Below are positions 7,337 through 30,170 of a stretch of DNA of 64,000 bases, one piece after another (within the stretch, counting starts at the first letter, position 1; every line of letters starts with the position of its first letter). A program made the translations under genes and the position numbers. The notes beneath the pieces are model-generated. The model made no database searches and had not been told where the DNA came from. It was given only the letters and a program-made list of their open reading frames with translations. Source of the DNA: an uncultured Solirubrobacteraceae bacterium (GTDB lineage: Bacteria > Actinomycetota > Thermoleophilia > Solirubrobacterales > Solirubrobacteraceae); assembly GCA_964588985.1 (NCBI GenBank), contig CAZPQW010000019.1, forward strand, positions 4,632 to 68,631. Reading direction: 5' to 3'.

Positions 7337-7411
7337 GTGGAACGTCGAGGTAACGCAGCGCGATGAGTCGTTCTACCAGTTCGTCACGCCACGCGTAGAC
7401 TTGCTGACGAG

Positions 7412-7948
7412 ATGAGCGAGGCCACGAGCGAGCAGATTGGACAGCAGAGCGGTTCATCGTCGATGCAGTTGGTCGAACGGTTCTTGGACTTGCTGAGCGT
7501 CAAGGACATCGACGGTGCGACGCAGCTGCTGGCGCAGGACGTGGTGTATGAAAACGTCGGCTTGCCGACGGTGCGCGGGCGCGAGCGCGTTCGGCGGCTC
7601 GGCAAGGCCACACTCGGCTTGGCCGGCGCCGGATTCGAGGTCTACACGCACACGATCTCGGAGAGCGGTTCGACGGTGATGACCGAGCGCACTGATGTTC
7701 TGAAGTTTCGCCGGCTGCGCGTCCAGTTCTGGGTCTGTGGGCGTTTCGACGTTCGTGACGGACAGATCGTGTTGTGGCGTGACTACTTCGATCAGGCGAA
7801 CATCCTCGTTGCGACGCTACGTGGGCTGGTCGGTGTGATCGTGCCGGCGGCTCGCGCCAAGCCACCCGCCCAGGAGATCGCGCGGATGCGCGGGGCGGGC
7901 GACGTGGAGTTGACGACCGACGAGACCCTTTCGCTGACCAGACGGTGA
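7412..7948 (+). CDS. SnoaL/limonene-1,2-epoxide-hydrolase-like (NTF2 fold) protein
   Basis: The pattern VERFLDLL...DVVYENVGLP...WRDYFD is typical of the LEH/SnoaL family. Start (7412 or 7463) is uncertain. Confidence 0.65.
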   Translation: MSEATSEQIGQQSGSSSMQLVERFLDLLSVKDIDGATQLLAQDVVYENVGLPTVRGRERVRRLGKATLGLAGAGFEVYTHTISESGSTVMTERTDVLKFRRLRVQFWVCGRFDVRDGQIVLWRDYFDQANILVATLRGLVGVIVPAARAKPPAQEIARMRGAGDVELTTDETLSLTRR

Positions 7949-7971
7949 GCCCCTCACCGGGTCTTCGTGGA

Positions 7972-8607
7972 TCAGTACCCCGGCTCCCCCGGCAGCACGA
8001 TCCGCGCGACCTCGCCCTCCATCACGACCCGCGGCTGGATCGGGAGCACGTCGCGCCCGCAGGCATAGGCGAGCAGCTCCTCCACCGAGGCGAACTCGCC
8101 GAGCTGTTCGAGGTGCTTGATCGTGGGGAAGACCAGCACGATCTCCTTCGCCTCGTGAGCGGCGAGCGCGGCGGCGGGCGTGAACCAGCCGAGGTCGACG
8201 CACTCCTCGCCGTCGATCCGCGGCTCCTGCCCCTCGGGGAGCTCTGCGAGGAAGAAGTGCGTGTCGAAGCGGATCTGCACCTCAGCGGGCGTGATCCAGC
8301 GCGAGAACTTCACGAGCACGTCGGGACCCTCGAGCACGATCGCGGCCTCCTCGCTCAGCTCGCGCACCGCGGCCGCGCGGTGCGCCTCGTCGCCGGCGCC
8401 CTCCTCGGCGTCCACCGCGCCGCCGGGAAAGACCCACACGCCGCCCATGAAGCGAGCCTCGGGAGTGCGCCTCACGAGCAGAACCTCGAGCGTCTCCGAG
8501 CCTCCCCGCATCAGGATCACGGTCGCCGCCTGGCGGGCGTGCACGGGCTTGCCGGGGTTGTACGCCTGCCCGGGCTCCGGTAGCTCGCTCCCCTCGCGTG
8601 CGCGCAT
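7972..8607 (-). CDS. NUDIX hydrolase
   Basis: Nudix box GGAVDAEEGAGDEAHRAAAVRELSEEAAI. Confidence 0.85.
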   Translation of the reverse strand: MRAREGSELPEPGQAYNPGKPVHARQAATVILMRGGSETLEVLLVRRTPEARFMGGVWVFPGGAVDAEEGAGDEAHRAAAVRELSEEAAIVLEGPDVLVKFSRWITPAEVQIRFDTHFFLAELPEGQEPRIDGEECVDLGWFTPAAALAAHEAKEIVLVFPTIKHLEQLGEFASVEELLAYACGRDVLPIQPRVVMEGEVARIVLPGEPGY

Positions 8608-8637
8608 CGGCTGACCCTACCTTGTCGGTAATCTTCG

Positions 8638-8853
8638 ATGCATGAGCAACCCGACCCAGACCCCACGCGCATGAGCGCCACCGAGACCCTCCAGCGCTGG
8701 ATCTGCGAGTCCTGCGGCTACATCTACGACCCCGAGGAGGGCGACCCGGACGGGGGCATCCCCGCGGGAACGCCGTTCCAGGAGATCCCCGACACGTGGT
8801 TCTGCCCCGTTTGCGGCGCGCGTAAGCGGGACTTCACCGTCTACGAGGACTAG
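8638..8853 (+). CDS. Rubredoxin
   Basis: [17 protein letters not shown]...[13 protein letters not shown] (two CxxC knuckles). Start 8638 or ATG 8671. Confidence 0.85.
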
Positions 8854-8901
8854 GACGGTCTGACGGACTGGGGCGAACTGCTCGCGCTCGACTCCGAGCG
8901 C

Positions 8902-10149
8902 GTGTGGCACCCATACGGCGCGCTGCCCGCGGCGATGCCGTCGCTGCCGGTGGTGTTCGCAGAGGGCGTGCGTTTGACGCTCGCGGACGGTCGCGAGCTG
9001 ATCGACGGGATGGCGTCGTGGTGGTGCGCGATCCACGGCTACCGCAACCCCGCGCTCGACGCCGCGGTCACCGGTCAGCTGGGACGTATGGCGCACGTGA
9101 TGTTCGGCGGCCTCACGCACGAGCCCGCGATCCGGCTCGCACAACGGCTGACGGAGATCGCGCCCGCGGGGTTGGAGCGCGTGTTCCTCGCCGACTCGGG
9201 GTCGGTGTCGGTGGAGGTCGCGATCAAGATGTGCATCCAGTACCAGCGCGCGCTCGGCCACAGCGGGCGCACACGTCTGCTGACGGTCAGAGGCGGCTAC
9301 CACGGCGACACCGCCGGCGCGATGGCCGTGTGCGACCCGGTTGGAGGGATGCACAGCCTGTTCGCGGGCGTGCTGCCCGAGCACGTCTTCGCGGAGCGCC
9401 CACCCGACGGGTTCGACGCTCCCCTCGACGAGGCGTGGGCCGCCCAGGTGCGGGAGCTTGCGGAGCGCCACGCGCACGAGCTGGCCGCGGTGATCGTCGA
9501 GCCGGTCGTGCAGGGAGCGGGAGGGATGCGCTTCCACTCGCCCGCATGCGTCGCGTTCCTGCGGACGCTGTGCGACGAGCATGGCCTGCTGCTCGTGCTG
9601 GATGAGATCGCCACTGGCTTCGGGCGCACCGGTGCGATGTTCGCCTCCGAGCACGCCGGCGTGAGCCCGGACGTGATGTGTGTCGGCAAGGCGCTCACCG
9701 GCGGCTACATGACGCTCGCGGCGACGCTGTGCACGCCGGCGGTCGCCGAGGCGGTCTCATCGGGCGAGGGCGGCGGGCTGATGCACGGCCCCACGTTCAT
9801 GGCCAATCCGCTCGCGTGCTCGGTCGCGCTGGCGTCGCTCGAGCTGCTCGCCGACGGCGGATGGCGGGCGCAGGTCGGCGTGATCGAGCAGGGGCTGCGA
9901 CAGGGCTTGGAGCCGGCGCGCGCGCTGCCTGACGTGAAGGATGTTCGTGTGCTCGGCGCGATCGGCGTGGTGCAGCTGAACCACGATGTAGATGTCGCTC
10001 GGGCGACCGCTGCGGCGGTCGCGCATGGCGTGTGGCTACGCCCGTTCCGCGACCTCATCTACACGATGCCGCCGTATGTCATCAACGAGGAGGATCTGGC
10101 TCGAGTGAGCGGCGCGATTCTCGATGCGGCGAGGGCCGGCGGGGACTGA
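8902..10149 (+). CDS. bioA: Adenosylmethionine-8-amino-7-oxononanoate aminotransferase
   Basis: [34 protein letters not shown] (PLP Lys). Homology-like sequence continues upstream of GTG 8902 to codon 8854/8860 (see finding). Confidence 0.9.
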
Positions 10150-10154
10150 GAGCG

Positions 10155-10862
10155 CTACCGGAGCCAGCGACGCCAAGGCAGCGACTCCCCAGCGCCCGCG
10201 AGCTCGACTGCGACAGGCCTGGAGATAGGAGGAAGGATCTCGACCTCGACCTCGCCCACCCGCGCGATCGTCTCGCGGTTGGAGCGCTCGATCGCCGTCG
10301 GTTCCTCCGGCCATGGTGTGAGCACCACCGCGCACACCTGCAGGCCCGCGCTTCGCGCCACCTGAAGCGTGAGCAGAGTGTGGTTGATCGTGCCGAGCCC
10401 GGGTCTCGCGGCGATCACCACCGGCAGCCCGAGAGCGACCGCGAGATCGCACACGGTGTAGTCGTCCGCCAGCGGCACCAGCAGGCCGCCCACGCCCTCC
10501 ACGACGAGCGTCTCCTCCGCGGTGGGGCTGTCAGGGCGCGCGCCGCCTCGAGCGTGCGCCAGCAGCTCCGCCGGGTCGATTCGCGCCCCCGCGAGCTCCG
10601 CCGCCAGGTGGGGTGAGACGGCGGGTCCGAAGCGCAGCGGCGAGACGTCCTCGGGACGCATGCCGGCAGCCGACGCAAGCAACTCGTGGTCTGGCGGCCA
10701 CGTCTCCCCGGCGTTCGCATCGGGCGGCTCGTCGAGTCCCGTCACCACCGGCTTGAACGCCCGCACGCTCTCGCCGGCGGCGACCATCGCCGCGACGAGC
10801 GCCGCGCTCAGGACGCTCTTGCCGACGCCCGTGTCGGTTCCCGTGACGAACAGTCCGCGCAT
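10155..10862 (-). CDS. bioD: Dethiobiotin synthetase
   Basis: N-terminal LFVTGTDTGVGKSV P-loop; bio gene context. Confidence 0.9.
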   Translation of the reverse strand: MRGLFVTGTDTGVGKSVLSAALVAAMVAAGESVRAFKPVVTGLDEPPDANAGETWPPDHELLASAAGMRPEDVSPLRFGPAVSPHLAAELAGARIDPAELLAHARGGARPDSPTAEETLVVEGVGGLLVPLADDYTVCDLAVALGLPVVIAARPGLGTINHTLLTLQVARSAGLQVCAVVLTPWPEEPTAIERSNRETIARVGEVEVEILPPISRPVAVELAGAGESLPWRRWLR

Positions 10863-10880
10863 GAGCGCCGGAGTGGAGCT

Positions 10881-12287
10881 CTACGCCGCGGAGGCTTCGC
10901 GCTCGAGATCGAACGGAGCGCTCGCCAGTGCAGCCTCGCGCCGGCGGGGCGCGGGCGCCTCCTCGGCGTCGCGCTCCATGTCGAACGGCACGGGGCCCGT
11001 GCGCTCGCGCTCGCGCCCGTATGAGCGCTCGCGCACGATCCGCGCCAGTTCCGCGTGTTCGCTGTTCGGGTCCTCCACCGGCTGCGCCGGCTCCGCGGAG
11101 GGCGAGAGGATCGCGGCCGGGTCCAGTCCGAGCCGGCGGGCGGCGTCGCCAAGCACGCTCGCCGCCATCTCCAGGTCCGAGGCTGTGTGCGAGGCCATCG
11201 TCGTCAGGCGCAGGCGCGAGGTGCCCGCTGCAACCGTCGGCGGGCGGATGCCCTGCGCGAACACGCCCTGCTCGATCGCCTCCTGGCACAGACGCATCGT
11301 CTGGCGCTCGTCGCCCACGATCAGCGGCACGATGTGCATGTCAGCCTCCGCCACCGGGAAGCCCTCGGCGGCGAGCGCCCGGCGCAGCGTGCGCGCGTTG
11401 GAGCGCAGCCGCTGCACGCGGTGGGGGCGCTCCTGCAGTAGTTCGAGCGCGGCGAGCGCGCCCGCGATCGCGGGGGGCGGGGGGGCGGTGGAGAAGATCA
11501 GCGAGCGCGAGGAGTTGATCAGGTAGCGCACGATCTCCGTGCTCGCGCACGCGTATGCGCCGTAGGAGCCGAGTGCCTTGCCGAGCGTGCCGACCACCAC
11601 GTCGAACTCGCCCTCCAGGCCCGCCTCGGCCACAGCGCCGCGTCCTTCCGGGCCGAGGTTGCCGATCGCGTGCGCCTCGTCCACCACCGTGCGCGCGCCG
11701 TAACGGCTCGCCAGCGCCGCGATGGGCTCGAGCGGCGCCACGTCGCCGTCCATCGAGAACACCGAGTCGGTCACGATCAGCCGACCGCCGTCTCGGCCGC
11801 CGTGGCGGTGCATGCTCCACTCGAGGTGCTCCACGTCGCGGTGGCGGTACACCACCACCTCCGCGCGCGAGAGCCTGCAGCCGTCGACGATCGACGCGTG
11901 GTTGAGCTCGTCGGAGAAGATCGTGTCGCCGCGGCCGGCTAGCGCGCCGATCACGCCGAGGTTCGCGAGGTAGCCCGAGCCGAACAGCAGACACGCCTCG
12001 CTGCCTTTGAACGACGCAAGGCGCTCCTCCAGGCGACGATGGATCGTCATCGTGCCCGACACCAGCCGAGAGGCGCCAGCGCCCACGCCCCAGCGCATCG
12101 CCGCCTCCGCCGCCGCCTCGCGCACGCGCGGGTGGTCGGCCAATCCGAGGTAGTTGTTCGAGCACAGCAGCAGCACCGGCTTGCCCTCCAGCAGCACCGT
12201 CGGCCCCTGTGGTCCGCTGATCAGTCGCAGACGGCGGCCCAGACCCTGACGCTCCAACTCCGCCACGCGCTCCTCGATCTCGCTCAT
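10881..12287 (-). CDS. bioF: 8-amino-7-oxononanoate synthase with a roughly 90-aa acidic/basic C-terminal extension
   Basis: The alpha-oxoamine synthase pattern NNYLGL...DEAHA.G..G..G...GTLGKALG. The extension carries a duplicated PFD(M/L)ER motif. Confidence 0.9.
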   Translation of the reverse strand: MSEIEERVAELERQGLGRRLRLISGPQGPTVLLEGKPVLLLCSNNYLGLADHPRVREAAAEAAMRWGVGAGASRLVSGTMTIHRRLEERLASFKGSEACLLFGSGYLANLGVIGALAGRGDTIFSDELNHASIVDGCRLSRAEVVVYRHRDVEHLEWSMHRHGGRDGGRLIVTDSVFSMDGDVAPLEPIAALASRYGARTVVDEAHAIGNLGPEGRGAVAEAGLEGEFDVVVGTLGKALGSYGAYACASTEIVRYLINSSRSLIFSTAPPPPAIAGALAALELLQERPHRVQRLRSNARTLRRALAAEGFPVAEADMHIVPLIVGDERQTMRLCQEAIEQGVFAQGIRPPTVAAGTSRLRLTTMASHTASDLEMAASVLGDAARRLGLDPAAILSPSAEPAQPVEDPNSEHAELARIVRERSYGRERERTGPVPFDMERDAEEAPAPRRREAALASAPFDLEREASAA

Positions 12288-12315
12288 CTGCCCTTCCCCT
12301 TGAGTGTGCGCTGCT

Positions 12316-13476
12316 CTAGCCGACCGGAACTCTGTTGGATGCGCCGTCCGGGCGCGGAGGAACGTTGCGCTTTGCGCGGTAGCGCAGCTGCGTGGAGGGG
12401 TCCCACAGGCGCACCTGCAGGTCGACCGCTTCCGCCGTCGTCACATCCGCGAGCAGCTCTTCGACCACGTCGGGCGTCTCGCCAGCCAGCCAGCCGGAGC
12501 GGTTGTCCGGGCGCGGGTTGGCCGCGTTGTCGGGCTGGCGCGCCACGTTCAGGCCCAGCTCCTCGAACATCGCCCTGTCGGTCTCGGGCTCGTTGCCGAG
12601 CGTCGTCAGGAAGTTGCCCATCATGACGCCGTTGATGCCCGCCTGGACCGCCAGTTGCTGCAGCTCGCCGAGGTTCTCCACGCGCCCGCCACACAGACGG
12701 AACAGCGCTTCGGGCAGGATCAGGCGGAAGATCGCGATCCACTTCACCGCCTCCCATGGGTCCATGTACGCGCGGTCGCCGAACTTCGTGCCGGGGCGCG
12801 GGTTGAGCATGTTGATCGGGACGCTCGTCGGGTTGATCTCCGCCAGCTCGAACGCCATCTCCACGCGCTGCTCGCGCGTCTCGCCGAGGTTCAGGATCCC
12901 GCCCACGCAGGTCTCCAGGCCCGCCTCGCGGACCGCCTGGATGGTGCGCAGGCGACCCTCGTAGCGGACGGTGCTCGTCACTTCGTCGTAGTAGCTCGCC
13001 GCGGTCTCCACGTTGTGGTGCACGCGCTGGATGCCCGCCTCGCGCAGCGCCGTCGCGCGCGCCGCTGAGATGTGCCCGACAGACGCGCAGCGCTTGAGGT
13101 TGGTCTGCTCGGAGACGAGCCGCACGCCCTCCAGGTACTTCTCGAAGTCGCGCTTGGACAGGCCCTGGCCCTGCGTGACCATGCAGAAGCGGTGCGCGCC
13201 AGCCGCTTCCGCCGCGCGCGCGTGCTCGAGGATCTGCTCCGGCTCCATCATCGCGTGCATCGGCGTCTCCGCGTCGGCGAAGCGCGACTGCGCGCAGAAG
13301 CCGCAGTCCTCCGCGCAACCGCCCGACTTGGCGTTGACGAGCGAGCACATGTCTGTGGAGTCCGCGAAGCGCTCCACCCGTGCCTGCCACGCGCGCTCGA
13401 TCAGCGCTTCGATCTGCTCGTGGTCCTCGATCTCGCCGAGGCGGACGGCCTCCTCACGGGTGATCAGCGATGGCAT
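12316..13476 (-). CDS. bioB: Biotin synthase (radical SAM)
   Basis: CAEDCGFCAQS CxxxCxxC cluster motif; bio context; extended C-terminus. Confidence 0.9.
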   Translation of the reverse strand: MPSLITREEAVRLGEIEDHEQIEALIERAWQARVERFADSTDMCSLVNAKSGGCAEDCGFCAQSRFADAETPMHAMMEPEQILEHARAAEAAGAHRFCMVTQGQGLSKRDFEKYLEGVRLVSEQTNLKRCASVGHISAARATALREAGIQRVHHNVETAASYYDEVTSTVRYEGRLRTIQAVREAGLETCVGGILNLGETREQRVEMAFELAEINPTSVPINMLNPRPGTKFGDRAYMDPWEAVKWIAIFRLILPEALFRLCGGRVENLGELQQLAVQAGINGVMMGNFLTTLGNEPETDRAMFEELGLNVARQPDNAANPRPDNRSGWLAGETPDVVEELLADVTTAEAVDLQVRLWDPSTQLRYRAKRNVPPRPDGASNRVPVG

Positions 13477-19148: not shown

Positions 19149-20276
19149 ATGCCTCAGCCGAACAAAATCACGGGGAGCGGCCGCGGCCGACCCACGAGAA
19201 CCGCTGTCTACGAGCGCCTGCGTGTTCAGATCAGCGAACTGCGTGACCGGCTCGGTGGTCTGCCCTCGCCTCGCGAGGCGGACGGGATCTGGCGCGGGAT
19301 ATGGCTCGAGGAGGCTCACCACTCGACTGCGATCGAGGGCAACACGCTCGTGCTCAAGCAGGTCGAGCAGCTGCTCGAGGAGGGCCGCGCGGTGGGCAAC
19401 AAGGAGCTCAGGGAGTACATGGAGGTACGTGGGTACGCCGATGCCGCCAATTGGGTCTACGGTCAGGCGCTGAACTCCGGCGCATGGTCGGCCGGCGAGC
19501 TTCTCTCGCTGACCGAGCTTCGCCACATCCATCGACTCGCGCTCACGCCCGCGTGGGGTGTCGCGCCTCATCCGAGCGCCGGCCATAACGAGAGTCCGGG
19601 CTCATTCCGCGAGCACGACATCCGGCCGTTTCCCGGTGGGATGCGCCCACCGCCGTGGCCCGAAGTCTCTGCCATGGTCACCGACTGGATTCGCGAGGTC
19701 CAAGCACTCGGTCGGGCGGGTGACGGCATCGAGCCCGAAGCGCTGGCCAAGGTGCATGTGCGCTTCGAGCAGATCCACCCATTTCTCGACGGCAACGGGC
19801 GCACCGGCCGGCTTGTTCTGAATCTGCTCCTGGTCAGGCTTGGCTATCCCCCCGCGATCATCTTCAAGGGCGATCGCCGGCGATACCTGGCCGCACTCCA
19901 GAGCGCCGATCGCGGCGACCATGGCCCGCTCGGGGAGCTGCTCGCCCGCGCCATCCTCGACAACCTCCACAAGTTCATCGTCCCCGCGGTCGCCGGTCCG
20001 TCACGCCTCGTCCCGCTGCCTGCTCTCGCCTCCGAGGAGATCTCCGCAAACGCGCTACGCGTCGCCGCGACGCGGGGGCGTCTCATGGCCTCCAAGGCCG
20101 CTGACGGCACGTGGCGCAGCACGCGCGCATGGGTTGAGGAATACCTGGCTGGGCGCTACGAGCGCGAGGCCCGCAGCAGAAGTAGAGAACACGGCGGACT
20201 GCCGGTAGTCCGTGTTCCGGCACGTACGCCTCCAATCACGCCAGAGATCGTGCGGCGAGCACTCGACGAGGATTGA
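19149..20276 (+). CDS. Fic family protein (class II, N-terminal auto-inhibitory helix)
   Basis: Fic motif HPFLDGNGRTGR. An upstream STAIEGN matches the [ST]xxxE[GN] inhibitory motif. Confidence 0.9.
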   Translation: MPQPNKITGSGRGRPTRTAVYERLRVQISELRDRLGGLPSPREADGIWRGIWLEEAHHSTAIEGNTLVLKQVEQLLEEGRAVGNKELREYMEVRGYADAANWVYGQALNSGAWSAGELLSLTELRHIHRLALTPAWGVAPHPSAGHNESPGSFREHDIRPFPGGMRPPPWPEVSAMVTDWIREVQALGRAGDGIEPEALAKVHVRFEQIHPFLDGNGRTGRLVLNLLLVRLGYPPAIIFKGDRRRYLAALQSADRGDHGPLGELLARAILDNLHKFIVPAVAGPSRLVPLPALASEEISANALRVAATRGRLMASKAADGTWRSTRAWVEEYLAGRYEREARSRSREHGGLPVVRVPARTPPITPEIVRRALDED

Positions 20277-20363
20277 GCTTCCCGGTGGCGCTGTTGGACG
20301 TCAACGCGACTCGAGCATCCTCGCCATGGGCGACGGAAATGACGTCGGGGTATTGACCACGCT

Positions 20364-23300
20364 TTGAAAGGATCCGACGGACGGGGATCCTCGGTACCGC
20401 AGGACCAGCAGCCACGTGATCCACCTCCATTCGGATCTAGGCGTTACGCTGCGGCGGTGGTCGGACCCAGCCCTGACGTTCCCCAGACAGCATCAATAGA
20501 CAACCCGATCCTCAACTCGCCCTACGCCCCGCCCGGCCGGCACTATGAGGTCGGCCAGAACGGTCCGACCGGGGTGATCAAGGACGGTCGGCGGCCGAGT
20601 GAGTCTTGGATTCCAATCGCCATGGCGAGGAAGGACAAGAAAGGCGCGCCGGTTCAGGAGACGATTGACTTCGATGTCACCGGCGAACGCCGGGAGCGCA
20701 ACGAGCTGATCAACGAGATACGGCGAGACGTCGCGAAGTGGCGTGGTGACGGTCAGTATGGGGGCGTCACGCCGATCACCCGCAAGTTGCTCCAACACTG
20801 GGCTGATGAGGATCGCGAGAACCGCGTCATCTTCGCGCAGCGCGAGGCGGCCGAGACGGCGATCTTCCTCACCGAGGTCGCAGGACGGCACCATGGGTAC
20901 GCCGACTGGCGGCGGCGGCTCGAGATCGAGAACGAGGCTCACAACGACGGGCTCCCACGAGCAGCCCTGAAGATGGCGACCGGAGGCGGCAAGACCGTCG
21001 TGATGGCGATGCTCATCGCCTGGCAGACCCTCAACAAGGTGCAGTCGCCGCGAGATGCGCGCTTCACCAACCGGTTCCTCGTCATCACGCCCGGGCTGAC
21101 GATCCGCGACCGGCTCCGCGTGTTGTTGCCCGAGGATGCCGAGAACTACTACGACCTACGCGACCTGATCCCGGCCGACCTCAAGGGCGGCCTCGAGCAT
21201 GCGCGCATCGCGATCACGAATTACCACGCATTCCAGCTTAAGGACGCCAAGGAGATCAAGGGCGTCGCCAAGAACACGCGCCTCCTGTTGAAGGGCTACC
21301 GCAGGGACGACCCGTTTAAGGAGACGTCGCAGGCGATGGTGAGCCGCATCTTGCGCGACCTCGGGCCGGACAAGCAGCAGATCATGGTGCTGAATGACGA
21401 GGCGCACCACTGCTATATGGACCGGCTGCTGCAGGCTGGCGAGAAAGCCGACAAGGAGCAACAGGACGCGAACGAGCAGGCCCGCGTCTGGTTCCGCGGC
21501 CTGCAGGCGGTCACAAAGCACGTGGGCGTCAAGCAGATCTGGGATCTCTCGGCGACGCCGTTCTACCTCAAGGGTTCCGGTTACAACGAGGGGTACATCT
21601 TTCCGTGGACGGTCAGTGACTTCTCGCTGATGGATGCGATCGAGTCGGGCATCGTCAAGGTCCCGCGGACGCCGGTCGACGATGATGCGACCGACCCGCT
21701 CGTCACCTATCTGCGCTTGTGGGACTACGTCGGCGCCGAGCTCCCGAAGCGAGCTGCGAAGGACACGGTCGCGGATTGGCTCCCGCCGAAGGAGCTCGAG
21801 GGCGCGTTGCGCAGTCTCCACCGCTCGTACGAGAAAGCGTTCGCGCACTGGGAGAAGGAGCTGGCGCAGTACGGCGAGACGCCGCCGGTGTTCATCGTCG
21901 TCTGTCCCAGCACTGTCGTCTCCAAGCTCGTCTACGACTGGATCGCGGGTGAGCAGGTCATCGAGGACGATGAGGTCGTCGCCCACAAACCCGGACAGCT
22001 TGCGCTGCTGTCGAACGTCGTCGGCGGCAAGCCGCTCGCGCGTCCGCGCACCATCCTCGTCGACTCGGCGCAGCTCGAGTCTGGCGACGGGATGAAGGAT
22101 GAGTTTAAGAAGATCGCGACTGCAGAGATCGCGGCCTTCAAGCAGGAGTACCGCAAGCGCAACCCGGGTGCCGACGTGGAGAAGATCGAGGACAGTGAGC
22201 TGCTCCGGGAGGTGATGAACACCGTCGGCAAGCGCGGCCGGCTCGGCGAGCAGGTTCGCTGCGTCGTCAGCGTCTCGATGCTCACCGAGGGATGGGACGC
22301 CAACACGGTTACGCACATCCTCGGCGTTCGCGCGTTCGGTAGCCAGCTCCTTTGCGAGCAGGTCATCGGCCGTGGCCTGCGCCGCCGCTCGTACGCAGTG
22401 AACGAGCAGGGGATGTTCGAGCCCGAGTACGCGAACGTCTACGGCATCCCGTTCCAGTTCATCTCGTCCGACAAGCCGCTCAAGGATCCGCTGCCGCCGA
22501 AGCCGGTGATCGAGATTTGCGCGGTCGAGGGCCGCGAGGAGCTGCGGATCGAGTTTCCCAGGCTCGACGGCTACCGCGTCGAGCTTCCCGACGATGAGAT
22601 CTGGCTGGACCTTGAAGGCGCACCCAAGTTCGATGTCGGTCCGAACACGGTGCCGAGCTGGGTCGAGATGGGCGGCGTTGTCGGCGAGCGTGAGCTCGAC
22701 GAAGGCGACCCGACGCAGTACCGGCCCCAGCAGGTCGCCTTCGCCCTCGCTAAGCGCGTCCTCGACGCCAATTTCAACACCGTCGACGACAGGCGTCCCT
22801 GGCTCTTCCCCCGGCTGGTCGAGATGTGTCGGGTGTGGATCGAGGAGAGGGTGATCGTTTCCGGTGGCTATAGCCTCGGGTATCTGATGACGATCACGGA
22901 GGCAAGAGTGCTGGCCGCCGAGGCGGTGTGGAACGCGATCGTGCGCCAAGAGGGCAACCGCCGAGAGCGACTGCGCCCGATGATCAATCGATTCGACCCC
23001 GTCGGCTCGACCGGCGACGTCGATTTCCAAACGCGCAAGCGCACCGTGCCGACTGAGAAGTCCGAGGTATCCCATGTCACTCTCGACGGCAAGGACGGCA
23101 ATACGTGGGAGCAGCTCCTCGCGAGCGAGCTCGAGCTGAACAGGAACGTGAAGTCGTACGTGAAGAATGACCACCTCGGCTTCACGATCCCCTACGTGCA
23201 CAAGGGGCGGAGCCACAGCTATACACCGGATTTCCTCGCCCGGCTCGAGCCTGGCGATGACGGGATCGTGCGGACCCTCATCGTCGAGGTCTCCGGCAGC

Positions 23301-23528
23301 CAGAAGAGCCCAGGGCCGACCCGCCAGAAGGCGACCACCGCACGCGAGTCCTGGTGCGTAGCGGTCAACAACCACGGCGGCTTCGGCCGTTGGGGCTATA
23401 TAGAGATGACCGATCCGCTCGCGTTCAAGGCACGCCTCTCGGATGCGATCCAGGCGCTGTACGGCGACAACGCGATCATCGGCGACCCCGATCGTCTCGA
23501 CTTCGAGTTGGCAGGCCATGGCGCGTAG
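20364..23528 (+). CDS. Type III-restriction-like Res subunit (SF2 helicase plus C-terminal PD-(D/E)xK-like region)
   Basis: ATGGGKT Walker A, NDEAHH (DEAH), QVIGRGLRR motif VI, and C-terminal YTPDF...IVEVSGSQK. Start uncertain (TTG 20364 or GTG 20457). Confidence 0.85.
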   Translation: MKGSDGRGSSVPQDQQPRDPPPFGSRRYAAAVVGPSPDVPQTASIDNPILNSPYAPPGRHYEVGQNGPTGVIKDGRRPSESWIPIAMARKDKKGAPVQETIDFDVTGERRERNELINEIRRDVAKWRGDGQYGGVTPITRKLLQHWADEDRENRVIFAQREAAETAIFLTEVAGRHHGYADWRRRLEIENEAHNDGLPRAALKMATGGGKTVVMAMLIAWQTLNKVQSPRDARFTNRFLVITPGLTIRDRLRVLLPEDAENYYDLRDLIPADLKGGLEHARIAITNYHAFQLKDAKEIKGVAKNTRLLLKGYRRDDPFKETSQAMVSRILRDLGPDKQQIMVLNDEAHHCYMDRLLQAGEKADKEQQDANEQARVWFRGLQAVTKHVGVKQIWDLSATPFYLKGSGYNEGYIFPWTVSDFSLMDAIESGIVKVPRTPVDDDATDPLVTYLRLWDYVGAELPKRAAKDTVADWLPPKELEGALRSLHRSYEKAFAHWEKELAQYGETPPVFIVVCPSTVVSKLVYDWIAGEQVIEDDEVVAHKPGQLALLSNVVGGKPLARPRTILVDSAQLESGDGMKDEFKKIATAEIAAFKQEYRKRNPGADVEKIEDSELLREVMNTVGKRGRLGEQVRCVVSVSMLTEGWDANTVTHILGVRAFGSQLLCEQVIGRGLRRRSYAVNEQGMFEPEYANVYGIPFQFISSDKPLKDPLPPKPVIEICAVEGREELRIEFPRLDGYRVELPDDEIWLDLEGAPKFDVGPNTVPSWVEMGGVVGERELDEGDPTQYRPQQVAFALAKRVLDANFNTVDDRRPWLFPRLVEMCRVWIEERVIVSGGYSLGYLMTITEARVLAAEAVWNAIVRQEGNRRERLRPMINRFDPVGSTGDVDFQTRKRTVPTEKSEVSHVTLDGKDGNTWEQLLASELELNRNVKSYVKNDHLGFTIPYVHKGRSHSYTPDFLARLEPGDDGIVRTLIVEVSGSQKSPGPTRQKATTARESWCVAVNNHGGFGRWGYIEMTDPLAFKARLSDAIQALYGDNAIIGDPDRLDFELAGHGA

Positions 23529-26217
23529 GGCGAAGCAGGCTGGGTCCACGCCGGTCGACTCGATCACGCATGGGGACAAGCGGACGAACATCCCCACCGC
23601 TGACGCACTCGCCTTCGTCGACCCCGCGATCGAGGAGGTCCGCAAGGTTCGCTACGCGCGTGATGAGAGTCTCGACCCGCAGCTTGTCTGGCGCGGGAAG
23701 TATCCGCCCGTCGATGAGATCGGTGAGGCCGACCTCGACCTCGTCACCGACGCGCCGCCGATCTACATACAGGAGAAGATCGACCCGCGCGTTCTAATCG
23801 AGAACCTCCGCCGCACCGCGGAGAAGCCCGACGACGAGCCTGAGCTGACCCTGTTCGACTCCTTCGACGGGCTGGATGAGTTCGATCAGGTGGACTTCTA
23901 CAAGCATGACGCCAACTGGTCGAATCGCATGATCCTCGGTGACAGCCTGCAAGTGATGGCGTCACTCGCGGAGCGCGAGAAGCTCCGCGGAAAGGTGCAG
24001 ATGGTCTACATCGACCCGCCGTACGGAATCAAGTTCGGGTCGAACTTCCAAGTCTCAACGAGGAACCGCGCCGTGAAGGACGGGAATCGTGAGGACACGG
24101 TTCGTGAAGCGGAGCAGATCAAGGCCTTCCGCGACACATGGGAGATGGGGATCCACTCGTACCTCACATATCTTCGTGATCGCCTGATCGCCGCTAGGGA
24201 GCTACTGACTGAATCAGGGTCATGCTTCGTCCAGATCGGCGATGAGAACATGCACCTTGTTCGTTCGGTCATGGACGAGGTCTTCGGTGCGGCTTCGTTT
24301 GTCAGTGCAATCGTCTTCTCCAAGACCGCCGGGGCATCGGGAGACTCGCTGTCGGGCGTTGTTGACTACCTGTTGTGGTACGCGCGGAATCCTGATGCCA
24401 TGAAGTACAGGCCGCTCTTTACGTCGAAGGTGGCAGGTGAGAGCGGTGCCACGCAATACCGGTTTGTTGAGAAGGTTGGCGGCGAGCGACTGCCGCTCGG
24501 CGAGACTGTCCTTGAACCGGGCGATCGGCTCTTTGCACACGACAACCTGATGAGCCAGCGACCGGCCCAAGGGGCAGATGTGCGTGAGTTCACCTTTCAG
24601 GGTAAGGTCTTTCGCCCGAGGGCAGGCACGTTCAAGACTGATCAGGCCGGGCTGGAGTGCCTCGCGGCAGCACGACGACTGTTCTGGGTTGGCAACACCC
24701 TTAGATACGTCAGGTTCCTCGATGACTTCAATGCGTCACCACTGACGAATCTCTGGACGGATACGGGAACTTCAGGATTCGCCGACTCAAAGACATATGT
24801 GGTCCAGACACTTCCTCGGGCGATCGAACGTTGCGTGCTGATGTGCACCGATCCAGGTGACCTCGTTCTCGACCCGACCTGTGGCTCAGGAACGTCCGCC
24901 TACGTTGCTGAACAGTGGGGACGTCGGTGGATCACCATTGACACATCACGCGTTGCTCTCGCCCTAGCTCGGCAGCGAGTGATGGGTGCAAGGTATCCGT
25001 GGTATCTTCTCGCGGACTCCCCGGAAGGGCGTCTGAAGGAGCAGTCACTCGTGGCATATGCCCTGCCGCGAGACCCCGGAGAAGCCTCTAATAAAGATAT
25101 TCACGAGGGGTTCGTTTACGAGCGCGTACCTCACATCATGCTGAGCTCGATCACCAACAACCCGGACATCGAGGCGGGCATGATGCGTGACCAGGTCGAT
25201 GCTGCAATCAACCGTCATGCAGAATTCGAGCTGCTGTATGACCGGCCATTCGAGGAGGCCAAGAAGGTCCGCGTCGCCGGCCCCTTCACAGTCGAGTCGC
25301 TGAGCCCACATCGCTCGCTCTCGTTCGGCGACAGCTCCGAATCCCTCTCTGAGACTAAGGCCGCCAAGGACGCCGACGCACCAAACTTCGAGCAGTCGAT
25401 CCTCGATAACCTCGCGAAGGCCGGCATCCAGAACGGCCGCCGGCAGGAGCGGATCGCGTTTGCGGCGTTCGAGACATATGCGGGCGACTACATCCAGGCG
25501 ATCGGCCAGCGCGACGGCAAGACGGATGGGGACACCCCGGTGCGGATCGCGATCGCGATCGGCCCGCAGTACGGCACCGTCAGCCCGTCGTATGTGAAGA
25601 AGGCGGCGCGCGAGGCGATCGAAGCAGACGACGTCGACCTGCTCGCGATCCTCGGCTTCGCCTTCGACCCGCAGGTCACCGGCCTCACCGAGGGCGACGG
25701 CGTCAGCATCGAGGCTTCCGACGAGGGCTTCGCCACCGTCGCGGGCGTTCGCAAGCTGGGCCGCATCCCAGTACTAATGGTGCGTATGAACGCCGACCTC
25801 CTTATGGGCGAGGAGCTGAAGAAGACCGGCGCCGGCAACCTTTTCACCGTATTCGGCGAGCCCGACATCGCGTGGGATGAGACCGAAGACGGCATCGTGG
25901 TCGATCTTAGGGGCGTCGACGTCTACGACCCGACGACTGGCGAGGTGCGCAGCAACAGCACCGACCAGATCGCGCTCTGGATGATCGACACCGAGTATGA
26001 CGAGGAGTCGTTTTTCGTCCGGCATTGCTATTTCACGGGCGGCAACGACCCGTACAAGCGCCTGAAGACCGCGCTCAAGGCTGACATTGATGAAGAGGCG
26101 TGGGAGTCGCTCTACCGGACTATCTCCCGCCCCTTCCCGAGGCCTGAGACCGGCAAGTTCGCCGTCAAGGTAATCAACGACTACGGCGATGAGGTCATGA
26201 AGGTCTTCGAGGTCTGA
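23518..26217 (+). CDS. Site-specific DNA methyltransferase (N6/N4, beta-class order) with a long C-terminal extension
   Basis: Motif IV YIDPPYG precedes motif I LDPTCGSGTS by roughly 280 aa. ATG 23518 overlaps the res stop by 11 nt. Confidence 0.9.
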   Translation: MARRAKQAGSTPVDSITHGDKRTNIPTADALAFVDPAIEEVRKVRYARDESLDPQLVWRGKYPPVDEIGEADLDLVTDAPPIYIQEKIDPRVLIENLRRTAEKPDDEPELTLFDSFDGLDEFDQVDFYKHDANWSNRMILGDSLQVMASLAEREKLRGKVQMVYIDPPYGIKFGSNFQVSTRNRAVKDGNREDTVREAEQIKAFRDTWEMGIHSYLTYLRDRLIAARELLTESGSCFVQIGDENMHLVRSVMDEVFGAASFVSAIVFSKTAGASGDSLSGVVDYLLWYARNPDAMKYRPLFTSKVAGESGATQYRFVEKVGGERLPLGETVLEPGDRLFAHDNLMSQRPAQGADVREFTFQGKVFRPRAGTFKTDQAGLECLAAARRLFWVGNTLRYVRFLDDFNASPLTNLWTDTGTSGFADSKTYVVQTLPRAIERCVLMCTDPGDLVLDPTCGSGTSAYVAEQWGRRWITIDTSRVALALARQRVMGARYPWYLLADSPEGRLKEQSLVAYALPRDPGEASNKDIHEGFVYERVPHIMLSSITNNPDIEAGMMRDQVDAAINRHAEFELLYDRPFEEAKKVRVAGPFTVESLSPHRSLSFGDSSESLSETKAAKDADAPNFEQSILDNLAKAGIQNGRRQERIAFAAFETYAGDYIQAIGQRDGKTDGDTPVRIAIAIGPQYGTVSPSYVKKAAREAIEADDVDLLAILGFAFDPQVTGLTEGDGVSIEASDEGFATVAGVRKLGRIPVLMVRMNADLLMGEELKKTGAGNLFTVFGEPDIAWDETEDGIVVDLRGVDVYDPTTGEVRSNSTDQIALWMIDTEYDEESFFVRHCYFTGGNDPYKRLKTALKADIDEEAWESLYRTISRPFPRPETGKFAVKVINDYGDEVMKVFEV

Positions 26218-26234
26218 CGACAGGGGAGGACGGA

Positions 26235-29042
26235 GTGCCGATCTACACACAGGCCCAGGCCGAGGCAATCTCCTGCCTCGACGAGCCGCTTCAGATGATC
26301 GCGTGTGCCGGCTCGGGGAAGACCCAGGTGATCTCTCAGCGGATCGCATCGATCCTCTCGCTTCCGGGCGTCGAGCCACGAAACGTCGTCGCGTTCACGT
26401 TCACCGAGAAGGCGGCGGCGGAGCTTCAGGACAGGATCTATTTCATCCTCGAGGAGGAGGGCGTAGACCGGCTCGGGCTGGCAGAGATGTATGTCGGAAC
26501 GATGCACGGGTACGCCCTCGACCTGTTGCAGCGGCTCGTCCCGGAGACCTTTAAGTTCTCGGTGCTGACGGACATCACCTCGCGGCTGCTCGTCGACAGG
26601 AACAGCAGGCAGTCCGGCTTGACCGTCTGCCCGACCAGCTCTCCCGGCACGCCTACGCTGCGGCGCTACATCCACTCGAAGCTCTTTCTGCAGGCAACGA
26701 GTGTGCTCCGCGAGGACGAGGTCGATGGAGATCTGGTGCCGGAGGGCGTGCAGTCATCGTTCCGCGACTACATGAGGTTGATTTTCGAGAAGGCCTATTT
26801 CGACTACACCGAGATCATCAACCTCGCAGTTCAGTTTCTCGAGGGAGATGAGGATGACGATGAGGACGCGGCCAGGATCCGCAGTCACATCCGTGACGAC
26901 ATTCGCTACGTTGTGGTCGACGAGTACCAGGATGTCAACCCGCTTCAAGAGCGTCTCGTCCGGGGGCTGACGCAGTTCGGTGCGAACCTTTGTGTCGTCG
27001 GAGACGACGATCAGACGATCTACCAGTGGCGTGGGAGCGAGGTCTCGAACATCGTCACGTTCGCCGACCGGTACGCTGGCGTCCGCCAGGTGACACTCGC
27101 CGAGAACTTCCGCTCGAGCGAGGGTGTGGTCGAGGTGGGGAGGTCGATCGCGGAGCAGATCCCCGCCGGTAGTCGCCTGCCGAAGGCAATGGTGCGCGCT
27201 GGCCACCAGACCTGGGACCGAGGTGACTTGATCGCTCGCGACTTCGCCGACGAGGACGAGGAGGCCGCGTGGATCTGCGATCGCATCGAGGCAATGCGCG
27301 GACTTGCCTTTCAGGACACTGCCGACAACGAGGCACGGGGCCTCTCGTGGTCGGACTTCGCCGTGCTGTTCCGGTCTGTCGCGAAGGACGCGGACCCACT
27401 AGTCGCGGAGATGCGGCGGCGCGAAATCCCGTACGTCGTTAAGGGTCTGAATCGCCTCTTCGACAGCCCGGAGATCACCGCTGTCGTCGGGGCGTTTCGC
27501 TATATGGCTGGCCTCGTCGATGCGCCGGCTCTACGGGACCTCTGGCAGGACGCGAACCTTCTCCCCGGGAACGGCGACTGGGCTGCGGCACTCGCTGTCC
27601 TAGAGGACGGTCGCGACTTCGACCGGGGAGAGCGGTGGGGCGTCTACAACATCCAGCGGCTTTACCTCGACTTTCTCGCCGCGCTCGGCGTGCGCGAGGA
27701 GACGGTTCCGGGTGAACCGGTGCGGCGAGAGCTCGTCTTCTACCAGCTCGGGAAGTTCAGCCAGGCGATCTCGGACTTCGAGGCTATCTACTTCAACAGC
27801 GAGCCTGCGCGGAAGTACGAGGCGTTCGCGAAGTGGCTCGAGTACCAAGCTCCGGATTACTACGCGGAGTCCGACGCCGACGTGGGGTATGCGACGCCGG
27901 ACGCGGTCACGCTCACAACAGTGCATCAGGCCAAGGGCATGCAATGGCCGGCGGTATTCATTCCCTGTCTGCGCAAGAACCGCTTCCCGTCGAAGCGGCA
28001 CGGCGGATTGGGCCTCTTCCACGTCATCCCGGAAGCTGCCATCGCCGATGCCGACCGCTACCGCGGCACCGTCGAGGACGAGACACGCCTCTTCTATGTT
28101 GCAGCCACTCGTGCCCAGAAGTACCTGTTCGTGTCGTTCTCGCCTGGGTCGAACCAGCTCTACAGGAAGCGGTCGGACTTCTTCGACCACTGCGCGAGCC
28201 AGCAGTGGTTCTCAACCAGGGACACGGGTGTGCCGGCGGACGCGCCGCGGCTCGAGCCTCGAGCCCACCACGAGACGCCGAACGTAACGCTGTCGTTCTC
28301 GGAGCTGAAGTACCTGTTCGAGTGCCCGTACCAGTTCAAGCTGCGCTTCCTCTACGGGTTCAACCCTCCGCTGCACGAGGCACTTGGCTACGGCAAGGGT
28401 CTACACGACGCGCTGTCGGAGCTGCACAAGCGTGCGCTCGCCGGCGACATCGTCGGGAACGACAAAGCCGAAGATCTCGTCGACCGGCATCTGCACGCTC
28501 CGTACGCGTACCCCGCGCTGCGCCAGACGCTGCGCGACGCAGCCGTGAAGTCCGTCCAGCGATATCTCGACGAGCACGGCTCGACGCTTGAGAAGACCGT
28601 GCACAGCGAGAAGGAGATCCAGGTGCACGTCGCTCCCGGTATCACCGTCGCCGGCCGGATCGACCTCGTCCGGCGACTGGACACCGACGAGCTCTCGATC
28701 GTCGACTTCAAGTCGACTGCTCGCGCACAGGACGAGGACGTGACGCGCGATCAACTGCACGTCTACGCCGTCGGTTACGAGGAGCTCACCGGCGAGCGGG
28801 CGGACCTGATCGAGGTGCTCAACCTCGACGAGGAAGGCAAGACCATCAGGGAGGAGGTCGAAGAGCCGCTCCTCGTCGGCGTGCGTTCGCAGATCCGCGA
28901 CGCGGGCGATTCGCTGCGGGAGAACAACCTTCCGCGCCTGGCCTCATGGGGCGAGCAGTGCTCCAAGTGTGACCTCGCCGAGCTGTGTCGCGATGTTCCT
29001 GCATTGGAGAAGGCGTCGCGACGTGCGGCCTCTGGTCGCTAA
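26235..29042 (+). CDS. UvrD/PcrA-type SF1 helicase fused to a Cas4/AddB-like 4Fe-4S PD-(D/E)xK nuclease
   Basis: Helicase motifs: CAGSGKT, VVDEYQD, GDDDQTIYQWRG, ENFRS, HQAKGMQW, YVAATRA. C-terminal nuclease motifs: ECPYQF, GRIDLV...IVDFKS, QLHVYA, CSKCDLAELC. The GTG start lies 17 nt after the mod stop and has a ggggagga RBS. Confidence 0.9.
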   Translation: MPIYTQAQAEAISCLDEPLQMIACAGSGKTQVISQRIASILSLPGVEPRNVVAFTFTEKAAAELQDRIYFILEEEGVDRLGLAEMYVGTMHGYALDLLQRLVPETFKFSVLTDITSRLLVDRNSRQSGLTVCPTSSPGTPTLRRYIHSKLFLQATSVLREDEVDGDLVPEGVQSSFRDYMRLIFEKAYFDYTEIINLAVQFLEGDEDDDEDAARIRSHIRDDIRYVVVDEYQDVNPLQERLVRGLTQFGANLCVVGDDDQTIYQWRGSEVSNIVTFADRYAGVRQVTLAENFRSSEGVVEVGRSIAEQIPAGSRLPKAMVRAGHQTWDRGDLIARDFADEDEEAAWICDRIEAMRGLAFQDTADNEARGLSWSDFAVLFRSVAKDADPLVAEMRRREIPYVVKGLNRLFDSPEITAVVGAFRYMAGLVDAPALRDLWQDANLLPGNGDWAAALAVLEDGRDFDRGERWGVYNIQRLYLDFLAALGVREETVPGEPVRRELVFYQLGKFSQAISDFEAIYFNSEPARKYEAFAKWLEYQAPDYYAESDADVGYATPDAVTLTTVHQAKGMQWPAVFIPCLRKNRFPSKRHGGLGLFHVIPEAAIADADRYRGTVEDETRLFYVAATRAQKYLFVSFSPGSNQLYRKRSDFFDHCASQQWFSTRDTGVPADAPRLEPRAHHETPNVTLSFSELKYLFECPYQFKLRFLYGFNPPLHEALGYGKGLHDALSELHKRALAGDIVGNDKAEDLVDRHLHAPYAYPALRQTLRDAAVKSVQRYLDEHGSTLEKTVHSEKEIQVHVAPGITVAGRIDLVRRLDTDELSIVDFKSTARAQDEDVTRDQLHVYAVGYEELTGERADLIEVLNLDEEGKTIREEVEEPLLVGVRSQIRDAGDSLRENNLPRLASWGEQCSKCDLAELCRDVPALEKASRRAASGR

Positions 29043-29116
29043 GGTCTGGGATTCAGAACGTATGCGGCCATCAGGCTAATCCCGCGGGTCACTGCGACGC
29101 CATTTCTGTGCCGGAC

Positions 29117-29146
29117 TTGACATTCTTCCAAAGAGCGGGATAAGCT
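29117..29146 (+). promoter_or_regulatory. Putative sigma70-type promoter (ttgaca-18 nt-taagct) for the 4-TM gene
   Basis: The -10 ends 7 nt before ATG 29153, which implies a leaderless or near-leaderless mRNA. Confidence 0.4.
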
Positions 29147-29152
29147 CATGAA

Positions 29153-30085
29153 ATGGATGTCGGGAGGCAGGTTTTCCGTTTCTCGATTCCTGGTTCTATT
29201 CTGCTTCTCTGGATGTCCATAGGCGTGGTCCTGATGCGCGTAATCGCGGGCGTCTCCCTGACGACAGCCACAGGGCCACTGCGTGAGAACCTTTCCGCGT
29301 TTGCCGCGATTTTGGCAGCGATTCCAGTGGGGTTCATCGTATATCAGGTCTATTATGTCTTTTATCGGCCAATGTTCCTGGGCTGGCCAATGATCTGGTA
29401 CGGGCGATGGATTCGTCTGGATAGGGCATCCCAAGTGCTGTCGCACTTCGAGGAGGATCAAATTCAAGCTTTGCGAGAGCTTTTTGGTGCTCAGTTGGAT
29501 GTGTCTAAGCCTCACGAGCACGAGAAGCTGTGGCCATTTAGATATCTCCGGCTACTCAGATTTTCTCAAGAGTATCTTGATCGCTTTGAAGGCAAGGCTG
29601 ATGCGCGTGCGGCATATCGTGCCCGATGGCATGGTAACTGGGATGTATTGCGTGCCGTTATCGATATCAGCGAGGCCAGTGACGCAACGAGTGGCGTGAA
29701 GCGGGAATACGCGAACCTTGCAGACATTTATCATTCTCTGGGAGCTACGCGCATGGCTATTTGGGGCGCGTGGTTTGCGAGTGCTGGGGTGACGCTCGCC
29801 GCTACGGTTAACCTGCACGAACCGCTCGCGAATTGGTTGTACGGCTTGCTTGCCTACTCGTTCATAACCGCCGTCATCCTTGTGGTCATGCACGAGACTC
29901 GAAGGCAGACCTGGAATTCCGCATCGAAATCCCTTCTTTTTGGACTGCGGTGGATTCTTGACAACCATCCGGAGCTGTTTGAACCAGCGCCGCAAGAGAG
30001 CGAGTCATCTCAGGCCGGGCCCCTAAAGCGCCTCCGACGACGTGTCCCGTGGCGCCCGTCAGTTGCCGAGCCGGAGGAAAGCTGA
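29153..30085 (+). CDS. Four-TM membrane protein with a central helical cytosolic domain, unknown function
   Basis: Two N-terminal and two C-terminal hydrophobic helices. Lowest GC in the window (about 50% by eye). No family recognised. Confidence 0.65.
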   Translation: MDVGRQVFRFSIPGSILLLWMSIGVVLMRVIAGVSLTTATGPLRENLSAFAAILAAIPVGFIVYQVYYVFYRPMFLGWPMIWYGRWIRLDRASQVLSHFEEDQIQALRELFGAQLDVSKPHEHEKLWPFRYLRLLRFSQEYLDRFEGKADARAAYRARWHGNWDVLRAVIDISEASDATSGVKREYANLADIYHSLGATRMAIWGAWFASAGVTLAATVNLHEPLANWLYGLLAYSFITAVILVVMHETRRQTWNSASKSLLFGLRWILDNHPELFEPAPQESESSQAGPLKRLRRRVPWRPSVAEPEES

Positions 30086-30170
30086 TCGCTGGGCACCCGC
30101 GCGGCTGAGGCATCCTCGGGACATCGGGGTACAGTTCCCAGAATGCATGGCGCCTGTGGCGGTTCAGGAG

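Follow-up and report, generated by a model that had tools for sequence, protein, structure and literature searches.

The 64,000-nucleotide (nt) stretch analyzed here (the window), taken from contig CAZPQW010000019.1 of an uncultured Solirubrobacteraceae bacterium, carries a locus that sequence comparison identifies as a Type III-like restriction–modification (R-M) pair of the BPTD_3080 family, res and mod, followed by an accessory gene, hel, for a predicted UvrD-Cas4 helicase–nuclease; loci of this kind are known from computational work. We are rather confident that the pair belongs to a known family and that the accessory gene is functionally linked to it. The best explanation overall is a mobile Type III-like R-M cassette that brings along a UvrD-Cas4 break processor in a single operon, and we judge this to have somewhat more speaking for it than against it. 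As a discovery the locus is modest, since neither the R-M family nor its association with the accessory gene is new to the record.

Structure and Boundaries of the Cassette

Three open reading frames (ORFs) were listed for the locus, at 20364–23528 (1054 amino acids, aa), 23443–26217, and 26235–29042 (935 aa), and the genes that they represent are intact and lie head to tail on the plus strand. The longest ORF of res opens at TTG 20364, with GTG 20457 as a shorter candidate; the latter is most likely the true start because a database protein that is 100% identical to the res product (P0121) has 1023 aa, the NCBIfam model NF046055 aligns only from residue 45 of the long ORF onward, and the DNA homology with related loci starts at 20425–20440. 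With this start, res occupies 20457–23528 and is preceded by the left edge of the cassette and a 5′ leader at 20425–20456. The ATG of mod at 23518 gives an 11-nt overlap with res, whose stop codon is TAG 23526–23528, and mod (23518–26217; 899 aa) ends with TGA 26215–26217; after a gap of 17 nt, and behind a Shine–Dalgarno-like GGGGAGGA at 26224–26231, hel begins with GTG at 26235 and runs to 29042. An earlier sequence-only reading had described this layout, ribosome-binding site included, and had noticed no terminator-like hairpin between the genes; all of this can be seen in the sequence, and a scan of 19800–29600 found no terminator-like site in either the res/mod or the mod/hel junction. 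The five such sites within the scanned interval are all intragenic, with 5.1 expected by chance, and no sigma-70-like promoter was found there. That res, mod, and hel are co-transcribed as one operon can reasonably be inferred.

The homology to the closest relatives (L044 and L005, 88–90% identity at the DNA level) ends at 29069–29070, and across the four closest loci (L005, L015, L044, and L004; 85–90% DNA identity), the homologous segment reaches from 20425–20491 to 29035–29070, placing the right edge of the cassette at 29043–29070. The flanks on both sides are unrelated to those of the relatives. The cassette is an 8.6-kb element (20425–29070) that consists of exactly three genes and is horizontally mobile. 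The G+C content of the region is 60–64%, compared with ~69–70% in the flanks, which code for housekeeping enzymes. A search around 20425 and 29070 turned up neither direct nor inverted repeats, the insertion is not marked by att-like or terminal repeats, the window is free of tRNA genes, and none of the neighboring genes scanned encodes an integrase.

Conserved Linkage of the Three Genes

A scan for hel orthologues, limited to one genome per species, gave 80 loci at 55–94% identity; with three further ones added, 83 loci were classified by tblastn, 8 of them too short to judge and 75 informative (55–95% identity). The hosts are mostly Actinomycetota, with others from Myxococcota, Planctomycetota, Chloroflexota, Bacteriovoracaceae, Woeseiaceae, and Eisenbacteria. 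A res-mod pair of the BPTD_3080 family lies upstream of the orthologue and on the same strand in 51 loci, 29 with a junction below 200 nt and 22 with inserted DNA, and in 4 others the upstream pair is cut by a contig end, bringing the arrangement to 55 of the 75 informative loci. A second, unrelated Type III pair, made up of a Mod that matches PADLOC model PDLC03645 at 862 bits and an 867-aa ResIII protein, is found in 14 loci in divergent, co-directional, or convergent orientation, and Type I hsd genes stand beside hel in 2; the remaining 4 have no R-M genes within 10 kb. Altogether, the orthologue adjoins Type III Mod and Res in 69/75 and an ATP-dependent R-M system in 71/75 informative loci. 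The mod–hel junction measures 12–130 nt in 29 loci, and the linkage is kept where 1–3.9 kb of other defense genes lie between mod and hel.

The association extends to more distant relatives. In a locus classed as viral (L100; IMGVR_UViG_3300031991_000072, 4506–12800), genes of the same families stand in the order hel-mod-res, with 48/36/33% identity, and on an Athalassotoga plasmid, hel is followed by genes for a DNA methyltransferase and a DEAD/DEAH helicase-family protein that have no match to the Mod and Res of the window. More remote UvrD-Cas4 fusions on Priestia and Vibrio plasmids adjoin Dcm and a Type II endonuclease/Vsr, and because this holds for the distant fusions, too, every partner observed is one that nicks or cuts DNA. 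The pairwise distances of hel and Res are correlated (r = 0.84, Mantel p = 0.001). In a neighbor-joining tree of hel, the alternative R-M partners are scattered over several branches, and repeated partner switching is therefore indicated. The sequence-only reading had made its case depend on hel being syntenic with res-mod in other genomes; the locus counts, the cassette edges, and the distance correlation bear this out, and the three genes are one conserved, co-transferred unit.

Sequence Features of the Three Proteins

The hel product matches the Pfam families UvrD-helicase (6e-50), UvrD_C (7e-30), and PDDEXK_1 (4.5e-22), and its closest solved relatives are PcrA (1pjr, E = 1e-39) and UvrD (2e-37); it nevertheless scores far under the UvrD and PcrA equivalog cut-offs. 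Invariant in 43 homologues are its helicase motifs (K29, DEYQD 229–233, and R626), its nuclease residues (D810, D824-x-K826, and Q840/Y844), and four cysteines of the Cas4/AddB type (C697, C909, C912, and C918). These features identify hel as a putative superfamily 1 (SF1) motor resembling UvrD/PcrA fused to a Cas4/AddB-type iron–sulfur (Fe-S) nuclease of the PD-(D/E)XK class. With an N-terminal SF1 helicase, a C-terminal pfam12705 nuclease, and the Fe-S cysteines, hel has the makeup by which UvrD-Cas4 fusions were defined (PMC5704561).

The Res protein scores 1163.6 bits against NF046055, the "BPTD_3080 family restriction endonuclease" model (cut-off 800), with alignment to model positions 1–969 of 970, and its database relatives bear the same family name; by these matches, it is a full member of a known family. 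Besides a match to Pfam ResIII (3e-9), it has the motifs Walker A GxGKT, DEAH, SAT, and motif VI, all invariant in 25 family members that include distant plasmid ones. The same 25 proteins share an invariant C-terminal PD...E-V-S-G pattern whose lysine is off its canonical place; the C-terminus also gives a weak TnsA-like PD-(D/E)XK match (E = 0.008, below its cut-off), and the Res profile reaches T7 endonuclease I marginally (E = 0.36). We read Res as a probable superfamily 2 (SF2) helicase-like ATPase with, on weak evidence, a C-terminal PD-(D/E)XK-like nuclease. It seems to be very distant from canonical Type III Res proteins: the best score with the PADLOC REase_III models is 23.5 bits, over ~45 residues, the NCBIfam type III endonuclease model PRK15483 gives 16.6 bits (cut-off 564), the family profile finds the Res of EcoP15I (4zcf_C) at E = 0.064, and the PDB, searched with the single sequence, returned no match. 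Nor is the res-mod pair an oddity: Res belongs fully to NF046055, whose members are encoded in either gene order and also in plain two-gene systems.

The remaining protein, Mod, appears to be a Type III-like beta-class N6-adenine DNA methyltransferase. It matches Pfam N6_N4_Mtase (2e-27) and, at 870.8 bits, the REBASE-derived Type III model MTase_III PDLC03632 of PADLOC, and over residues 124–463 its family profile finds the Mods of EcoP15I (4zcf_A, E = 6e-20) and H. pylori (6k0w, 2e-25). The motifs DPPY 166–169 and DPTCGSG 452–458 (DPTCG 452–456) are invariant, and DPPY (motif IV) precedes the S-adenosylmethionine-binding motif I, as in the beta class. The sequence-only reading was right about the Type III-like character of Mod and about the two parts of hel, an SF1 motor and an Fe-S nuclease of the PD-(D/E)XK class, on the evidence of Pfam and PADLOC matches and invariant motifs, and of the searches with hidden Markov models that it had proposed, those for ResIII, N6_N4_Mtase, UvrD-helicase, UvrD_C, and PDDEXK_1 produced matches. 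It had also pointed to a large extra C-terminal region of Mod. The long C-terminal half is indeed present, but it is not peculiar to the trio: identity to the Mods found beside family Res proteins on plasmids and in genomes is 41–76%, the C-terminal half included, and the last ~400 residues, for which there is no Pfam or PDB match, are conserved across the family. We consider the long C-terminus a family trait because it is kept equally well in systems without the helicase, and for the same reason a role as a docking site for the helicase is rejected.

Within the cassette, the alignment to the four loci of 85–90% DNA identity breaks down in a single place, the mod segment 24290–24825. This segment falls between motifs IV and I of Mod and is presumed to be the target-recognition domain; the break in the alignment therefore suggests that the recognition domain, and hence the specificity, has been swapped among cassettes that are otherwise nearly identical. 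Phase-variable repeats, a feature of many mod genes of Type III systems, are absent from this mod.

Proposed Break Processing and Its Alternatives

In Type III systems, Mod methylates the DNA and targets Res, an SF2-type enzyme that communicates between sites with the help of ATP and then cuts. Motors of the UvrD family move 3′–5′ on single strands, and Fe-S nucleases of the RecB/AddB/Cas4 type work at DNA ends. By analogy, Mod would draw its specificity from the swappable recognition domain and methylate the host DNA, and Mod together with Res, through the SF2 ATPase and the C-terminal nuclease of the latter, would cut incoming unmethylated DNA. The hel protein would then load at the breaks or nicks, unwind the DNA 3′–5′ by its UvrD motor, and use its Fe-S nuclease to cut the strand so displaced, such that a single cut would lead to irreversible degradation and the R-M genes would move together with a RecBCD/AddAB-like activity of their own. 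Restricted DNA is known to be degraded by RecBCD in E. coli (PMC12707154). The model fits because all the observed partners of hel nick or cut DNA, and the catalytic motifs of all three proteins are conserved. The enzymology of Res and Mod and the break-processing step as a whole are nevertheless inferred by analogy, and we regard the mechanism proposed for hel as tentative, plausible but somewhat short of probable.

The most serious competitor, though an unlikely one, holds that hel is an autonomous defense or repair gene that hitch-hikes beside R-M genes in defense islands, neither depending on the restriction enzyme nor assisting it. What it has in its favor are the loci in which one module occurs without the other. 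In a sample that started from Res instead of hel and covered six named genomes (Res identity 74–79%), we found res-mod-hel twice, res-mod-OLD-hel once, res-mod-PIN_8 twice, and res-mod with two unknown genes once, leaving only three of the six close relatives with hel. A further 40 plasmid records have a Res of the BPTD_3080 family at 30–55% identity, in either gene order, and a full-length UvrD-Cas4 protein is found on none of them; the four plasmids that do carry the fusion are all others. Seven plasmid contexts were inspected: downstream of res-mod, there is nothing relevant on a Rhodococcus plasmid, a deaminase-domain protein in Picosynechococcus, a UvrD-like protein without a nuclease in Pseudomonas avellanae, and CBASS genes in Methylomagnum; a Tn3 transposase follows res in Methylibium, and the Thermus and Mycobacterium avium plasmids have the order mod-res and no UvrD-Cas4 fusion. 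Conversely, four hel orthologues (L046 and L075–77) lie without R-M genes within 10 kb, and in Myceligenerans indicum (L017, 8516–10004) only remnants of res (aa 41–106) and mod (aa 817–899) are left, and behind them come a SIR2-like gene and hel, which is intact, the accessory having outlasted the decay of its R-M partner. The pair of the BPTD_3080 family thus probably does not require hel. The sequence-only reading had seen a three-component module in the locus; the conserved unit stands, while the dependence was overstated, with PIN_8 or unrelated genes taking the place of hel in close Res relatives.

The same picture emerges from the position behind mod, which, as would a hot spot in a defense island, takes up unrelated defense genes (L008, L017, L029, L097, L098, L073, L032, L002, and L060). 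The slot between mod and hel may hold an OLD/GajA-like ATPase-Toprim gene, SIR2 with HerA, SIR2 alone, PIN_8, GmrSD, a YaaC-like gene, or an HEC-07/NsnC-like gene, and PIN_8 occurs in the post-mod position with or without hel. The occurrences of either module alone weigh against the explanation that we favor, and so do three points of another kind. First, both the Mantel correlation and the counts of syntenic loci are inflated by shared ancestry. Second, the AlphaFold2 models of hel (pLDDT 56.0) and Res (pLDDT 47.7), built from shallow alignments of close homologues only (at least 73% identity), are too poor for a test of the folds, and a Foldseek search of the PDB with the low-confidence Res model gave nothing at E ≤ 0.001. 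Third, the promoter and terminator scan is neutral on a single transcript, speaking neither for nor contrary to it. Against simple hitch-hiking, however, the partners of hel are specifically R-M systems, which belong to at least three unrelated families and stand in every orientation; moreover, the junctions of 12–130 nt recur in 29 loci, the cassette edges enclose just the three genes, and the survey of 2017 likewise concluded that the fusion is associated with R-M systems (PMC5704561).

A second alternative, and one that we consider quite improbable, sees hel as protecting the host: it would resect the breaks that the R-M system inflicts on its own genome once the cassette has been newly acquired or methylation has been lost, feeding them to recombinational repair and lowering the cost of the cassette. 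The domain set is as in the resection enzymes RecB, AddA, and AdnB, a mobile cassette enters naive genomes, RecBCD has a known role at self-restriction breaks (PMC12707154), and a recombination-promoting role has been suggested for UvrD-Cas4 as well (PMC5704561). Yet hosts usually have resection machinery of their own, we can point to no element for Chi recognition or RecA loading, and the linkage to OLD, SIR2-HerA, and GmrSD genes points toward offense.

More improbable still is a Gabija-like end sensor, in which DNA termini would trigger nucleotide hydrolysis or indiscriminate cleavage, that is, abortive infection as a back-up to restriction. The idea owes its appeal to 11 loci where an OLD/GajA-like ATPase-Toprim gene lies directly 5′ of the hel orthologue; in nine of them (L009, L010, L011, L014, L021, L022, L073, L080, and L094), the OLD gene sits between mod and hel, the other two being L016 and L018. 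By context, these pairs of an OLD and a UvrD-like gene fit the definition of class 2 OLD (Gabija-like) systems (PMC10568477), here with a helicase that has a putative nuclease domain. The PADLOC models for GajB reach 177 bits with hel, but these matches reflect a general UvrD similarity: GajB has no nuclease domain, and the helicase core of hel is far nearer to PcrA/UvrD (E = 1e-39) than to the solved GajB (E = 3e-7). The window, too, is without an OLD gene. We give hardly any credence to the last alternative, that hel trims the fragments left by restriction for uptake as CRISPR spacers and so links innate to adaptive immunity; the nuclease is Cas4-like (TIGR00372, 6e-7, under its cut-off) and a cas3 gene lies near L077, but the window has no tandem-repeat array, no cas gene is among the ORFs scanned at 15.3–36.5 and 43–58 kb, most loci have no cas neighbors, and the fusion clade falls outside the CRISPR-associated Cas4 proteins (PMC5704561).

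The break-processing explanation has a broader version, possible but doubtful, in which UvrD-Cas4 would be a portable and partner-agnostic amplifier of breaks, loading on nicks and double-strand breaks made by whichever sensor nuclease adjoins it (Type III, Type I, Type II/Vsr, or OLD) and turning them into processive destruction of the invader. Under the same doubtful version, the frame of res-mod and hel would be a scaffold, and the defense genes inserted in it would share hel as their effector. If hel does process restriction breaks, R-M cassettes of Actinomycetota and other phyla bring their own finishing enzyme, similar to exonuclease V. Restriction would then be independent of the host RecBCD/AdnAB and of the phage inhibitors of those enzymes, and different sensors of innate immunity would have one effector in common. 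The UvrD-Cas4 family is a large and highly conserved one, represented in public data by thousands of close homologues, and its role has been a matter of prediction since 2017.

Neighboring Features

Directly upstream of the cassette, at 19149–20276 on the plus strand, is a gene for a Fic-domain protein (Pfam Fic, 2e-14; PADLOC SoFic, 83 bits, and PDC-S04, 87 bits), and together the two form a small defense islet of low G+C; a Fic gene stands beside the cassette in none of the 83 related loci. The lowest G+C of the region (~0.60) is reached at 29043–30100, just past the right edge, and the ORF at 29153–30085 (310 aa) belongs to no Pfam or PADLOC family, with a sub-threshold match to the BA5345 family only. 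In four of the related loci, a gene of ~1480–1510 aa on the opposite strand adjoins the cassette or hel (L003, 12811–17262; L094, 4402–8865; L096, 17910–21057; and L045, 12782–17320); it matches Pfam SACS and NOV_C in three of these genomes and is recognized in L045 by ORF size and position only.

Elsewhere in the window, a second block of odd composition extends over 47600–58400, with a G+C of 0.62–0.66, an AT skew of +0.13 to +0.24, and no PADLOC matches. It holds an ATPase_2/AAA protein (47676–48836) and two overlapping ORFs, at 51023–54955 (1310 aa, NHL-repeat match) and 54952–58353 (1133 aa, no family). A protein of the actinobacterial Holin-X family (PF07332, 6e-23) is encoded among metabolic genes at 44727–45290 on the plus strand.

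Comparison with Known Systems

No multi-gene model of PADLOC 2.0.0 claims the res-mod-hel trio, which agrees with the sequence-only reading on this point. For DISARM, BREX, Druantia, and the other named multi-gene systems of PADLOC, the result comes down to weak REase_III matches for Res, and none of them claims the trio. The suggested likeness to Hma did not survive the comparison: the two loosely share a helicase-like protein and a methylase, but there is no separate ATPase gene here and both helicases bear predicted nucleases. Res matched only three models, all REase_III (E ≤ 0.01), and there is no Hma model among the best 25 of 50 matches of mod or the best 25 of 64 matches of hel. Gabija, consisting of the class 2 OLD protein GajA and GajB, likewise pairs a UvrD-like protein with a DNA-cutting enzyme, and a preprint reports that GajB senses the DNA ends that GajA makes (bioRxiv 10.1101/2023.05.02.539174). 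It is rejected for the locus in the window, where mod ends 17 nt before hel with no OLD/GajA gene, and the neighbors at 15–36 kb are Fic, metabolic, and unknown genes.

With AddAB, RecBCD, and AdnAB, hel has in common the UvrD motor, the RecB-family nuclease, and the AddB-like four-cysteine Fe-S module, and it is presumed to act at DNA ends as they do. It differs in being a single polypeptide with no gene for a partner subunit next to it and in belonging to a mobile defense cassette instead of a repair locus. Orthology to AddAB or RecBCD is rejected, with 134.7 bits against addA_Gpos (cut-off 707.65), 97.3 bits against recB (cut-off 696.05), and no second subunit gene.

The classical Type III enzymes EcoP1I and EcoP15I are two-gene operons in the order mod-res; they cut with ATP 25–27 bp from one of two inverted unmethylated sites, and their asymmetric site is hemimethylated. 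The locus in the window appears to share with them the beta-class N6-adenine Mod, the specificity residing in Mod, and a Res with an ATPase, perhaps also the C-terminal nuclease of Res; it departs from them in the order res-mod, in a Mod that is ~250 aa longer, in the third gene, and in a Res that is barely recognizable as a relative. The agreement is much closer with the BPTD_3080 family and the long Mod of model PDLC03632, which have the same lengths (Mods of ~900–980 aa), the same motifs, and the same long Mod C-terminus. Systems of this family usually comprise two genes in either order, whereas here a helicase–nuclease gene lies downstream.

Within the library searched, there was no paper under the name "BPTD_3080", none on "UvrD-Cas4" beyond the survey of 2017, and no experimental study. 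That survey (Hudaiberdiev, Shmakov, Wolf, Terns, Makarova, and Koonin 2017, BMC Evol Biol 17:232; PMC5704561), a work of computational prediction only, reported that the UvrD-Cas4 fusion makes up the largest branch within pfam12705, is monophyletic, and in some loci is accompanied by further defense genes. The commonest neighborhood of the fusion was Type III Mod and Res, a second one was Dcm/Vsr, and the role proposed for it was ancillary unwinding and cleavage across several defense pathways (PMC5704561). The sequence-only reading could not match the trio to any described system; it is in fact already described, computationally only and without a name. The fusion of a UvrD-type SF1 helicase with pfam12705 and the Type III Res/Mod neighborhood are the same here as there, and nothing essential differs. 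What our analyses add to the survey are the exact boundaries of the cassette, the order res-mod-hel of this sublineage, the second Type III family and the Type I systems as partners, the variable slot for cargo genes behind mod and ahead of hel, and close R-M relatives that do without the fusion.

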